Shown one piece after another: positions 1 to 34,489 of a stretch of 34,489 nt of DNA. Below the pieces are notes generated by a model, which did no database searches, was not told the origin of the DNA, and was given only the letters and a program-made list of their open reading frames with translations. How positions within the stretch are numbered: the stretch's first letter is position 1; each line of letters starts with the position of its first letter. The position numbers and the translations under genes are program-made. Location of the stretch: the IMG/VR virus record IMGVR_UViG_2671180921_000023, positions 1 to 34,489 of that record, one strand, 5' to 3'. Source of the stretch: a virus. Taxonomy: Duplodnaviria; Heunggongvirae; Uroviricota; Caudoviricetes.

Positions 1-243
1 ATGTATACCTATAAAATGATTCAGGTGCCGCCGAATATTTCTGTAAAGGCAAAAGATAATAAAGCAGGGGTGGCTGCTGCATATCTTCAGAATGTTGTTA
101 ATGAACAGGCGGCGGATGGCTGGGAATTTCAACGGGTTGATACAATTGGTATAGAAGAGCAGCCAGGGTGTTTCGGTGGTGGAAAGGCTCAGTTTTTTCA
201 ATACTATGTGATTACTTTTAGAAAAAAAGTATCAGATGCTTAA
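1..243 (+). CDS. Small DUF4177-like hypothetical protein; flank gene, or prophage cargo if the element extends past the window edge
   Basis: 80-aa ORF at window start, overlaps the next ORF by 8 nt (operon-like). Fold-family guess only; ORF may be truncated upstream by the window edge. Confidence 0.45.
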   Translation: MYTYKMIQVPPNISVKAKDNKAGVAAAYLQNVVNEQAADGWEFQRVDTIGIEEQPGCFGGGKAQFFQYYVITFRKKVSDA

Positions 244-469
244 ATGGCTTAGTATACATCTGATTCTTTATTATCGTGCTCATGCGCCAGCAAGCATTCG
301 TAACAGATGTCGTTATAGCCCAAGCTGCTCAGCTTATACCTTGATTGCAATAAGGCGCTTTGGTTTTTTTGAAGGGTGGCGATTAGGATTGAACCGGATC
401 TATCGCTGTCGTCCGCCTAATGGTGGCGCTGATTATCCCCCGCATATTTGTAAATGTCGCAAATCGTGA
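236..469 (+). CDS. YidD-family (DUF37) small protein, membrane protein insertion efficiency factor-like
   Basis: 77-aa ORF with the cysteine-rich YidD-like pattern (CRYSPSCSAY ... FG ... G ... CRPPNGGADYPP). Followed by a hairpin plus T-run at 488-518. Confidence 0.55.
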   Translation: MLKWLSIHLILYYRAHAPASIRNRCRYSPSCSAYTLIAIRRFGFFEGWRLGLNRIYRCRPPNGGADYPPHICKCRKS

Positions 470-487
470 GTGCGTTGGAAAAAGAAA

Positions 488-518
488 CCCGCAGTTTTTA
501 CGCTGCGGTTTTGTTGTT
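488..518 (+). terminator. Putative rho-independent terminator after the YidD-like gene
   Basis: Stem ccgcag/ctgcgg with an 8-nt loop, followed by ttttgttgtt. Confidence 0.45.
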
Positions 519-598
519 CATGTCTGTGAGATAGGGTGCCTTATCGACCTTACCCTGGCAACCGATTGACGGGGGATTGCTCCCCCGTCGCGGTTTCC

Positions 599-739
599 TT
601 ACTGCTTACACTGTAAGAACGCCGCAAACTCCGCTCCCCAGAAGCTCATCCGTATTTCGCACAGCGAACCGTGCAGCATCCAGATGATGAGGATTACCGT
701 CACGCAGAACGTGATGGCTGTAAGCGATTTTTGCGACAT
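599..739 (-). CDS. hok: Hok/Gef-family type I toxin (46 aa; below the ORF-track size cutoff)
   Basis: Hand translation of the minus strand: MSQKSLTAITFCVTVILIIWMLHGSLCEIRMSFWGAEFAAFLQCKQ. N-terminal TM segment plus the Hok signature SLCEIR and EFAAF motif; AAGGAG RBS 8 nt upstream of the ATG; GC-rich hairpin just 3' of the stop. Confidence 0.65.
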   Translation of the reverse strand: MSQKSLTAITFCVTVILIIWMLHGSLCEIRMSFWGAEFAAFLQCKQ

Positions 740-955
740 AGCGCTTGCTCCTTTTTCGGAGAGGCGCTAACCTGTCACTTGCTTAGGGTAGACGGTTAGG
801 GCCTCGGTTAAACAGAGATGTTTTCCGGGGCCTTTCCACATCCGGCCTTCGGGTATTCCCTCCGACCATCAGCCGAAAGGCACCCGCGCGTAATTTACCG
901 TTTTCTGAGTTAATTCTCCAAATAAAATTCCAGAGTCAAAAACAGATACAGGCGA

Positions 956-1213
956 TCACATTACCGGAAACGGCAGTGACAACTGCGCATCACCCCGGTG
1001 AGACGCAGGCAGGCTTTGCCACGGAATATCCTGTGAAGTGCTGTCATAACGTTTAACAGTGATTTTGTCGAAACTCTCCAGCGTCGAGAAGGAGAGACTG
1101 CATTCCGGGTTGTTGCACTGGCAGAGTTTCCAGCGGACAGTTCCGGTATCGTTCGCTGCGCGACTGGTGCGGGTGCGGGTGCTCGCACCACAAAAAGGAC
1201 ACGGAAAAGACAC
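956..1213 (-). CDS. ogr: Ogr/Delta-type zinc-finger late gene transcriptional activator
   Basis: C4 zinc-finger pattern FPCPFCG ... CQCNNPEC; GTG start at 1213 preceded by AAGGAGG RBS. The longer ATG-initiated ORF (to 1285) would overlap the gpD 3' end. Sits downstream of D as in P2. Confidence 0.7.
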   Translation of the reverse strand: MSFPCPFCGASTRTRTSRAANDTGTVRWKLCQCNNPECSLSFSTLESFDKITVKRYDSTSQDIPWQSLPASHRGDAQLSLPFPVM

Positions 1214-32884: not shown

Positions 32885-32950
32885 CGGTTCACCAGGCATT
32901 TTTTTCCCAGAGCTGTGATCAAGATGATGTTTTCATTGGAGGGCTTCCTT

Positions 32951-33946
32951 ATGTCGATTAAGAAGCTCGCTAATGGCAAATTTTGTGTGGACGTGCGGCC
33001 TGCTGGATCGGAAGGAAAGAGATTCAGACGGCGATTTGATACTCGTGGTGAGGCTGTTTTGTATGAGCGTCATGTATTGCAGCATTACCACGACAAAGAC
33101 TGGGTTGATAAGCCAACAGAACGGCGCTCGCTGAGGGAGTTGCTGGATTGTTGGTGGCTATACCACGGGAAAAATCATCCTTACGGTGCGATGGAGCGAG
33201 TGCGTATTTCTGCGGTCATTAGTGATCTTGAAAGTATTAATGTTACACGCAGTGACCAACTTACTCGTAAGAACATAATTAATTATCGCTTATTGCTGCT
33301 TAACCGCGGAATAAAACAATCCACGGTTAATCGTTATTGTGCAATGATGAGTGGTTTCTTCACAAAACTAATTGACGCAGAGGAATATTCTGGGGCTAAT
33401 CCGTTTCATGATGTAAAAAAACTTAATATCAAACAGCCTGAAATGGCTTATTTGTATCATGAAGATATTCCACGATTACTGGAGTTGTTATCTGGTGATG
33501 AATTAAAAGCCGTCTTGTTGTGTCTGGCAACAGGTGGAAGATGGAGTGAGGTTGCAAATATCAAGGGGGAGCATGTTATTAGCGGCAAAGTCATTTTTAT
33601 GGAAACCAAAAATGGGAAGCGTCGCGTTATACCTATATCGTCAGAACTGGAGTGCATGATTAAAACAAAGGCCACTGGTCGTTTAATTTATCCAAGTTAT
33701 GCAGCTGTCAGAGCTGCTATCAGAAAGGTGAGGCCCGATCTTCCTGAAGGGCAGTCGATACATGTTTTACGGCATACCTTTGCCACTCACTTCATGATTA
33801 ATGGTGGGAATATCATCACTTTGCAGAGAATACTTGGACATAGCACTATTCAGCAGACGATGACTTATGCCCATTTTGCACCGGATTATCTACAGGATGC
33901 TGTGCGCTTTAATCCTGTGGCTGAGTTGTCCAGATATTGCCCATAA
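32951..33946 (+). CDS. int: Tyrosine integrase (P2 Int-like)
   Basis: Start at ATG 32951 (MSIKKLANGKF) with GGAGGG RBS; catalytic R ... HVLRHTF ... GHSTIQQTMTYAH signature. Confidence 0.9.
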   Translation: MSIKKLANGKFCVDVRPAGSEGKRFRRRFDTRGEAVLYERHVLQHYHDKDWVDKPTERRSLRELLDCWWLYHGKNHPYGAMERVRISAVISDLESINVTRSDQLTRKNIINYRLLLLNRGIKQSTVNRYCAMMSGFFTKLIDAEEYSGANPFHDVKKLNIKQPEMAYLYHEDIPRLLELLSGDELKAVLLCLATGGRWSEVANIKGEHVISGKVIFMETKNGKRRVIPISSELECMIKTKATGRLIYPSYAAVRAAIRKVRPDLPEGQSIHVLRHTFATHFMINGGNIITLQRILGHSTIQQTMTYAHFAPDYLQDAVRFNPVAELSRYCP

Positions 33947-34008: not shown

Positions 34009-34060
34009 GGGAGGCCAGTGTGCTCGGCCTCCTTCATGTCACCTTCGGGTGGCGTTGTTT
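34009..34060 (+). terminator. Two hairpins after int (the second followed by a T-rich run); terminator and/or att-proximal structure
   Basis: gggaggcc-loop-ggcctcc at 34009-34032; caccttcgggtg at 34040-34051 followed by gcgttgtttta. Confidence 0.4.
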
Positions 34061-34237
34061 TATGCGATGTATCTCGCGATTTTTTTTTGTAACTTTTCCA
34101 TCTTTTGCTTTTCTCTCCGAGCCGCTTTCCATATCTGCAATCGCATAAAAAACTCTGCTGGCGTTCACAAATGTGCAGGGGTAAAACGTTTCCTGTAGCA
34201 CCGTGAGTTATACTTTGTATAACTTAAGGAGGTGCAG

Positions 34238-34489
34238 ATGCGTATTACCATAAAAAGATGGGGGAACAGTGCAGGTATGGTCATTCCCAATATCGTAATG
34301 AAAGAACTTAACTTACAGCCGGGGCAGAGCGTGGAAGCGCAGGTGAGCAACAACCAACTGATTCTGACACCCATCTCCAGGCGCTACTCGCTTGATGAAC
34401 TGCTGGCACAGTGTGACATGAACGCCGCGGAACTTAGCGAGCAGGATGTCTGGGGTAAATCCACCCCTGCGGGTGACGAAATATGGTAA
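34238..34489 (+). CDS. chpS: ChpS (ChpBI) antitoxin of the chpB-chpS toxin-antitoxin pair
   Basis: 83 aa MRITIKRWGNSAGMVIPNIVMKELNLQPGQ ... GDEIW, complete; the stop TAA is the last 3 nt of the window. The ATGGTAA ending suggests an overlapping chpB start just beyond the window. Confidence 0.85.
   Translation: MRITIKRWGNSAGMVIPNIVMKELNLQPGQSVEAQVSNNQLILTPISRRYSLDELLAQCDMNAAELSEQDVWGKSTPAGDEIW

Follow-up and report, generated by a model that had tools for sequence, protein, structure and literature searches.

A probable type I toxin-antitoxin cassette of the hok/sok type in the accessory cargo of a P2-like prophage

Beside the ogr gene of a P2-like prophage lies a short reading frame that raises two questions, namely whether it encodes a toxin of the Hok family together with the RNA elements typical of such genes, and whether it belongs to the phage or to the chromosome in which the phage resides. 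The original prediction named it a hok gene and left both origins open. We analysed the whole stretch of 34,489 nucleotides in which it is found (hereafter, the window). We conclude, with a probability of about 0.88, that positions 480-921 form a hok/sok-type type I toxin-antitoxin cassette, which is accessory cargo of a P2-like (P88/Xuanwuvirus-type) prophage and is situated between ogr and the attachment site. The features on which this reading is built are collected in Table 1.

Table 1. Positions of the observed and predicted features (window coordinates unless a sequence record is named)
Feature	Position	Strand	Basis or remark
hok coding sequence	599..739	minus	46 codons plus TAA stop; open reading frame listing
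Shine-Dalgarno sequence AAGGAG	748..753	minus	8 nt 5' of the hok ATG; read from the sequence
Predicted full-length hok mRNA, ~406 nt	480..885	minus	5' end from Rfam model position 1 and start of conservation; 3' end from the terminator
5' element GGGUGCCUUUCGGCU, tac-like	871..885	minus	pairs with the 3' fold-back element
3' fold-back element GGUCGAUAAGGCACCC, fbi-like	534..549	minus	just 5' of the terminator; fold and alignment
Bidirectional intrinsic terminator hairpin	489..508	both	terminator scan; helix 15, 3 compensatory pairs
Conserved GC hairpin GACGGGGGAGCAAUCCCCCGUC	567..590	minus	shortly 3' of the hok stop; terminator scan and fold
Predicted Sok promoter	745..773	plus	-35 TTGCTC 745-750, 17-nt spacer, -10 TAACCT 768-773; positional homology to K-12 sok genes
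Predicted Sok-like antisense RNA, ~58-62 nt	~781-840	plus	both ends inferred; homology to annotated sokB and sokC hairpin
Putative weak hok promoter	892..921	minus	-35 TTGGAG 921-916, 18-nt spacer, -10 TAAATT 897-892, start G885; inferred
DUF4177 gene	1-243	plus	Pfam, NCBIfam
YidD-like gene ("membrane protein insertion efficiency factor")	236-469	plus	Pfam, NCBIfam; 8-nt overlap with the DUF4177 gene
Attachment core CACCTTCGGGTGGC, 14 bp	34040..34053		right prophage junction; shared 14-mer
Published hokW leader vs 46-aa module, Sp5 (VT2-Sakai)	AP000363.1 57778-57827 vs 44533-44906		
Published hokW leader vs 46-aa module, 933W	AF125520.1 58737-58786 vs 45492-45865		

The predicted 46-residue reading frame was recovered, and its product is MSQKSLTAITFCVTVILIIWMLHGSLCEIRMSFWGAEFAAFLQCKQ. 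It lies in a gap of 486 bp (470-955), which extends from the end of the YidD-like gene at 469 to the end of the ogr reading frame at 956, and the good ribosome-binding site that had been claimed for it is present. Read from the letters, the peptide starts with MSQKS, continues with LTAITFCVTVILIIWML (17 uncharged residues, L6-L22) and ends in a 24-residue tail. The uncharged stretch is followed by SLCEIR and AEFAAF, as had been described, and the tail carries the cysteines C27 and C44. On direct reading, the peptide shows the Hok layout of a short polar N-terminus, one hydrophobic helix and a cysteine tail. The gene had been called unlisted; it was missing only from the track of reading frames used for the original prediction and is annotated in RefSeq and in phage records. 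Identical peptides are WP_000078920.1 of RefSeq ("Hok/Gef family protein") and gp52 of phage P88 ("MokW-like host killing"), the MokW-like label being the one used in phage records. Reading-frame tracks with a floor of 60 residues overlook toxins such as this 46-residue Hok.

The assignment to the Hok family was confirmed by profile searches. The Pfam family HOK_GEF (PF01848) matched with 30.1 bits against a gathering cutoff of 22 (E 3.7e-7), residues 7-44 of the peptide being aligned on profile positions 5-42 of 42, and PHROG 251 ("MokW-like host killing") matched with 82.8 bits (E 2.5e-23). In an alignment with HokA-E of K-12 (taken from NC_000913.3), a check that had been proposed together with the prediction, similarity extends beyond the short motif. 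L26, E28 and E37 are invariant in all eight rows of this alignment, and C27 is kept in every row save HokB. Seven residues are conserved in more than 80% of the Hok peptides of a recent catalogue (logo positions M1, C16, T18, L30, C31, E32 and E41; 10.1101/2025.08.07.668861), and the counterparts of all seven are present in the window peptide (M1, C12, T14, L26, C27, E28 and E37). The closest K-12 paralogue is HokA, with 43% identity over 47 residues. HokA is also the best NCBIfam match, yet with 35.8 bits it does not come near the equivalog cutoff of 89 bits (NF007290); the Hok subfamily model, at 23.6 bits, likewise falls far under its cutoff. We therefore rejected the peptide as a HokA orthologue and regard it as a member of a related subfamily. 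We found 68 homologues among 5.8 billion proteins, mostly of 46 residues, from E. coli, Shigella, Salmonella and Klebsiella, and nearly all of those named by their source are labelled Hok/Gef family protein. By these sequence comparisons, the reading frame is real and its product is a member of the Hok/Gef toxin family.

Next, we considered the transcript. A closed architecture, in which the tac element at the 5' end is paired with the fbi element at the 3' end, is a hallmark of hok mRNAs (PMC9841398). The region 885->480 folds at -169.5 kcal/mol with a z score of -6.1, in agreement with the claim that the reading frame is surrounded by structured non-coding sequence; the gap of about 450 bp that had been named for it measures 486 bp with the reading frame included. 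In the minimum-energy fold, 885-871 is paired with 549-534, a segment that borders the terminator hairpin on its 5' side, and a fold-back element that had been suggested as something to look for is therefore predicted. This terminator is common to the convergent yidD-like (plus) and hok (minus) transcripts. A hairpin of the form UAGCGC-CUCUCC-GAAAAA-GGAG-CAA-GCGCUA is predicted to hold the hok Shine-Dalgarno sequence and start codon.

We then mapped this fold onto 13 diverse loci that had been aligned, among them P88, an Stx phage, E. albertii, several Salmonella contexts and Klebsiella. The diversity of this set came from genome contigs and exact-protein look-ups; a scan of viral contigs gave only copies with 98-100% identity, which were of no use for covariation. 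We observed that 88.7% of the cells were paired, compared with 40-45% when the partners were slid, and that 27 pairs were changed on both sides, compared with 6-14 in the slid controls; as the fold was computed on a member of the alignment itself, the percentage of paired cells is favoured by this design and the compensatory counts are less affected. The helix between the 5' and 3' ends (helix 1) has 15 pairs, four of which are changed on both sides, for example with CG in 8 loci and UA in 5. The GGCACCC of the fold-back element is kept in 9 of the 13 loci, and the other four have a one-base difference that leaves a G-U or U-G wobble. In helix 14, the hairpin that closely follows the hok stop, 99% of the cells are paired and 5 pairs are compensatory; in helix 6, the Shine-Dalgarno hairpin, 93% are paired and all changes are one-sided. 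By analogy with the R1 model (PMC9841398), from which this role is taken, helix 14 is likely to be a stabiliser of the 3' end of the processed mRNA. The modelled fold and its covariation show that the transcript region of ~400 nt is closed in the conserved manner of hok mRNAs, with its 5' end paired to the 3' fold-back element. When the RNA was folded without this element, the 5' end was predicted to re-pair with 837-827 (GGAAAGGCCCC), which left part of the Sok target unpaired. As a minimum-energy prediction, this refolding upon 3' truncation fits the R1 refolding model.

A covariance-model search, which had also been proposed, gave a match of the leader to Rfam RF01794 (sok / CssrC) at 885..726, end to end and on the hok-sense strand, with 45.4 bits and an E value of 1.4e-8, though under the gathering threshold of 59 bits. 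Other loci of the 46-residue family score 33-57 bits, in comparison with 84-118 bits for hokC, hokB and hokE of K-12. In these K-12 controls, too, the matched strand was that of hok and not that of the annotated sokC, sokB and sokE, and we take this to mean that RF01794 describes the hok leader and that the 46-residue subfamily is a divergent branch. The K-12 matches span the distance from the 5' end of the mRNA to the hok start codon (L100 502-654 for hokC, L102 1067-1218 for hokB and L104 1190-1345 for hokE). A model that is named "sok antitoxin" and marks the hok-sense strand leads derived annotations to put Sok on the wrong strand. The other Rfam matches in 1-1500 (Thr_leader, sR1 and CsrC; E 0.7-8.5) were discarded as chance.

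The original prediction expected a Sok-like antisense RNA in the vicinity of the toxin gene. We compared the plus strand of the window with the bodies of the annotated sokB, sokC and sokE of K-12 and 50 nt upstream of each, and observed that the -35, the -10, the start and the hairpin of a predicted Sok line up with all three. Its terminator-like hairpin (798-834) reads GGGCCUCGG...CCGGGGCC and is followed by a short U tract; the counterpart in sokB and sokC is GGCCUCGG...CGGGGCC. The predicted RNA is fully complementary to the hok leader from -42 to about -100, and would start ~42 nt upstream of the hok ATG as compared with 44-49 nt in K-12. The 64-nt Sok stretch folds at -24.7 kcal/mol (z -3.4), and the complement of the Sok -10 is AGGTTA or AGGATA in 13/13 loci. 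The hexamers themselves match the consensus at 3/6 and 3/6 positions only. A search for an antisense promoter had been proposed as well, and its outcome was divided: positional homology gives the promoter listed in Table 1, whereas a generic sigma-70 scan of 400-1000 called neither the Sok nor the hok promoter, its sole call (460-432) being irrelevant. The sokB hexamers of K-12 would likewise fall short of the threshold of such a scan. As the scan is silent at both sites, the promoter assignments rest on homology. At the position of the putative hok promoter, the relatives have TTGCCG or TTGCCC, then 17 nt, then TAGATT or TAAATT; the -35 of the window lies outside the conserved module, as identity to the relatives stops near 904-907. 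The Sok gene is therefore predicted, with good support from homology.

The mok leader that had also been expected is absent from the window and is not conserved in the relatives. In the window, in P88, in the Stx phage and in most of the Salmonella loci, no reading frame that starts upstream extends as far as the hok start, and the same script recovered the annotated mokB and a frame containing the annotated mokC in K-12. The position at which mok starts in R1 and in the K-12 loci, after the conserved GAGG, holds no start codon in the window, which reads CGU there. The SD-like GAGG of the leader itself is kept. Among 57 distinct modules, the frames of the leader ATGs end anywhere from -112 to +137. 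Longer overlapping frames, from -130 or -103, are present in 13/57 relatives and are closed in the window. The overlapping mok frame coupled to hok, a regulatory feature that helps to define canonical hok/sok/mok loci, was thus not found at this locus. With no conserved mok, the coupling of Sok to hok is expected to go through mRNA decay or refolding of the Shine-Dalgarno hairpin, and not through a leader peptide.

The leader does contain a reading frame of 24 codons (841..767, minus strand), which is in frame with hok and covers the whole Sok-complementary region. Its stop, a TAG, falls within both the Shine-Dalgarno hairpin and the predicted Sok -10 box. It resembles a coupling device and is not conserved in the relatives. 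We rejected it as a mok analogue, as its start or its stop is not conserved in the Stx, Salmonella and many of the E. coli copies.

Such a leader could belong to a decaying remnant, in which the hok frame survives, the regulation (mok and promoters) is broken and nothing is expressed. The lack of a mok frame and the widely varying ends of the leader frames among close relatives would agree with this, as would the weak promoter hexamers and the Rfam score below threshold, and K-12 does have inactivated hok loci, for example hokA and hokE, which are interrupted or abutted by IS elements. However, the hok frame is intact in 57/57 distinct modules examined, and its pN/pS of 0.18-0.45 (against 11 relatives) indicates purifying selection. 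Compensatory changes among E. coli, Salmonella and Klebsiella keep the RNA helices intact, and the predicted Sok -10 and hairpin are likewise conserved. Of 5426 complete E. coli genomes, 1553 have Megablast matches to window 1-960, most of which cover only the hok module of ~380-430 bp. Moreover, a variant with a single residue changed is implied to be toxic by the text of a published study (10.1101/2025.08.07.668861). We therefore consider a remnant improbable.

That study is the Hok catalogue of 2026 (Escalera-Maurer et al., bioRxiv 10.1101/2025.08.07.668861), the supplement of which holds the exact window peptide as unique peptide 1628 of cluster 72; at the peptide level, there is no difference between that entry and the window. 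Two mates from the cluster, 72_1621 (V15A) and 72_1589 (the Stx-phage version), were cloned for the toxicity assay. Among the 45 constructs tested, the only ones named as non-toxic are 19_179, 60_1482 and 69_1540. As 72_1621 and 72_1589 are absent from these three, the text implies that both are toxic, and thus that the one-residue variant 72_1621 is toxic on expression. The catalogue also reports that hok is enriched in prophages; it has no analysis of mok, Sok or mRNA structure.

We then addressed the origin of the cassette. The window is a P2-like prophage, as shown by ogr, gene D and an integrase gene (32915-33946), with chpS at its right. The hok gene had been placed at the prophage boundary, next to flank genes that were taken to be non-prophage. 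If this were so, hok could be a resident chromosomal locus that neighbours the integration site; hok genes are common on enterobacterial chromosomes (K-12 has five), and the left 469 bp of the window, with the DUF4177 and YidD-like genes, look non-phage at first. However, the entire 1-907 stretch is found within the circular genome of phage P88 (NC_026014, Xuanwuvirus), and over window 1-904 the end of that genome shows 91.5% identity, the DUF4177 gene and hok included. Both flank genes are phage cargo, lying within the P88 genome and within the prophage of E. coli PEC148, where the order is tamB, ytfP, att core, DUF4177, yidD-like, hok, ogr, D. A search for direct repeats between window 1-1000 and 33801-end found no att repeat, as the left copy of the core falls outside the window; comparison with PEC148 and K-12 revealed its place. 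In PEC148, this left copy of CACCTTCGGGTGGC marks the left junction, at a point that would be ~147 nt to the left of the first window position. Window 1-469 therefore also belongs to the prophage, and the true junction is the core in the ytfP terminator, left of the window.

A comparison with a locus that lacks the prophage, which had been suggested as a check, points the same way. In K-12, the core forms the ytfP terminator hairpin and occurs as a single copy in the empty, uninterrupted ytfP-chpS spacer of 211 bp, in which there is no hok. A chromosomal origin is refuted by this empty site, and we regard it as extremely improbable. From the gene order in P88 and PEC148, the core and the empty K-12 site, we conclude that hok is cargo ~750 bp inside the prophage, and the alternative of phage-borne cargo in the original prediction is the one that was borne out. 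Beyond the peptide, P88 shares with the window the neighbourhood (DUF4177, the yidD-like sequence, hok and tail gene D) and the integration site as seen in PEC148. The two differ in the region between hok and ogr, which diverges beyond ~904-907, and the P88 record annotates neither an antisense RNA nor the yidD-like gene.

Two further features of the insertion were observed. A phage-borne YidD paralogue adjoins the gene of a membrane toxin, which is curious. The prophage also immediately precedes the host type II toxin-antitoxin operon chpS-chpB, as seen at 34054-34489, and by its insertion in the ytfP terminator hairpin the upstream region of chpS is split from ytfP.

The cassette has a distribution much wider than that of the arm that carries it here. 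The whole DUF4177-yidD-hok arm was found in only 20/5426 complete E. coli genomes. Stx phages such as 933W and Sp5 (VT2-Sakai) carry the module with 82% identity, beside lom. Among Salmonella prophages, one of P2-like type has it beside ogr and another has it at its tail-fibre end; further copies adjoin a relaxase gene or an IS66 element, or are found in plasmid records. In contigs of Salmonella enterica, three 46-residue hok cassettes stand in tandem, ~500-700 bp apart (L096 3001-4487 and L097 3001-4143); each leader of these copies matches RF01794, and the peptides differ at several positions. An identical Hok is encoded at 1294-1431 of NZ_CP148288.1, a record of 34,461 bp labelled as an E. 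coli plasmid. This is nearly the size of the prophage, and the record is probably a circular P2-like phage genome that was assembled as a replicon. In a Salmonella P2-like prophage (L092 3295-3492), hok is the last phage gene and is followed directly by a match to the STnc540 sRNA (171.6 bits), which adjoins a gene of the HU/IHF family (Pfam Bac_DNA_binding); the STnc540 match may mark the integration site of that Salmonella phage.

A studied system with which the cassette might be confused is hokW-sokW of Sakai prophage 5, likewise a phage-borne hok/sok locus. Toxicity of this locus has been shown, as has its neutralisation by the antisense RNA, in which RNase III and Hfq take part, and the locus helps in the release of the phage (PMC8621323). 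If the window hok were its orthologue, its role would be faster lysis and phage release after induction. The MokW-like labels of the phage records and of PHROG 251 would suggest this, and so would the 82%-identical module in Sp5, 933W and related Stx phages. However, the published HokW has 51 residues and starts with MKQQKAM (primer YO-357; PMC8621323), a start that matches that of K-12 HokD, and its published leader (GCGGGTGCTTGAGGCTATCTGCC...) maps ~13 kb from the 46-residue module in the same Stx phage records (Table 1). We therefore rejected the identity of the window hok with the published hokW; the two are paralogues, and orthology is very unlikely. Sp5 (VT2-Sakai) and 933W have two hok loci each, of which only the HokD-like hokW-sokW has been studied; the lom-adjacent 46-residue hok is annotated as hypothetical (L0129 in 933W) or as "MokW-like". 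The latter label wrongly implies identity with the characterised hokW. A role as a lysis helper is possible for the window cassette by analogy with hokW-sokW.

The preferred reading, a phage-borne hok/sok cassette, allows the mode of action to be proposed from that of R1 (summarised in PMC9841398) and of the K-12 loci. The cassette shares with R1 and with hokB-sokB and hokC-sokC of K-12 the peptide family, the 5'-3' fold-back and the terminator directly after the fold-back element, as well as the GAGG and, by prediction, an antisense start 41-49 nt upstream of the hok ATG and the hairpin GGCCUCGG...CGGGGCC. It differs from them in that it has no mok frame and a peptide of 46 rather than 49-52 residues, and from the K-12 hok loci in its leader score of 45 bits on RF01794 as against 84-118. 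By this analogy, the full-length hok mRNA would be stable but not translatable. Slow trimming of its 3' end would strip the fold-back element, and the 5' end would then re-pair locally, as predicted with 837-827. The leader would thereby be exposed to the short-lived plus-strand antisense RNA of ~60 nt, and the duplex of antisense and leader would be destroyed by RNase III. Once synthesis of the antisense RNA stops, Hok would be made, enter the inner membrane and collapse the membrane potential. Without mok, the control by Sok would be exerted through mRNA decay or through refolding of the Shine-Dalgarno hairpin. The phage might benefit by addiction to the prophage, by help in lysis as for hokW-sokW, or by exclusion of other phages.

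It is tempting to go one step further, and we do so tentatively, with somewhat less than even confidence. The 46-residue Hok cluster may be a branch of hok/sok that naturally lacks mok, in which control is exerted only by RNase III decay or refolding of the Shine-Dalgarno hairpin, and its module of ~380 bp may be a mobile element that serves phage release or exclusion rather than addiction. Such a branch would have kept the fold-back mRNA, the SD-like GAGG and the Sok gene and lost the leader peptide, and the module would move between P2-like phages, lambdoid Stx phages, plasmids and the tandem arrays of Salmonella.

The window hok is an already known and already annotated element, which the original prediction identified correctly. 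Beyond correct annotation, its significance is small, as the gene is named in records and a near-identical variant has published toxicity data; the existence of a conserved, mobile and apparently functional Hok cluster without mok is the only, and mildly, new point.
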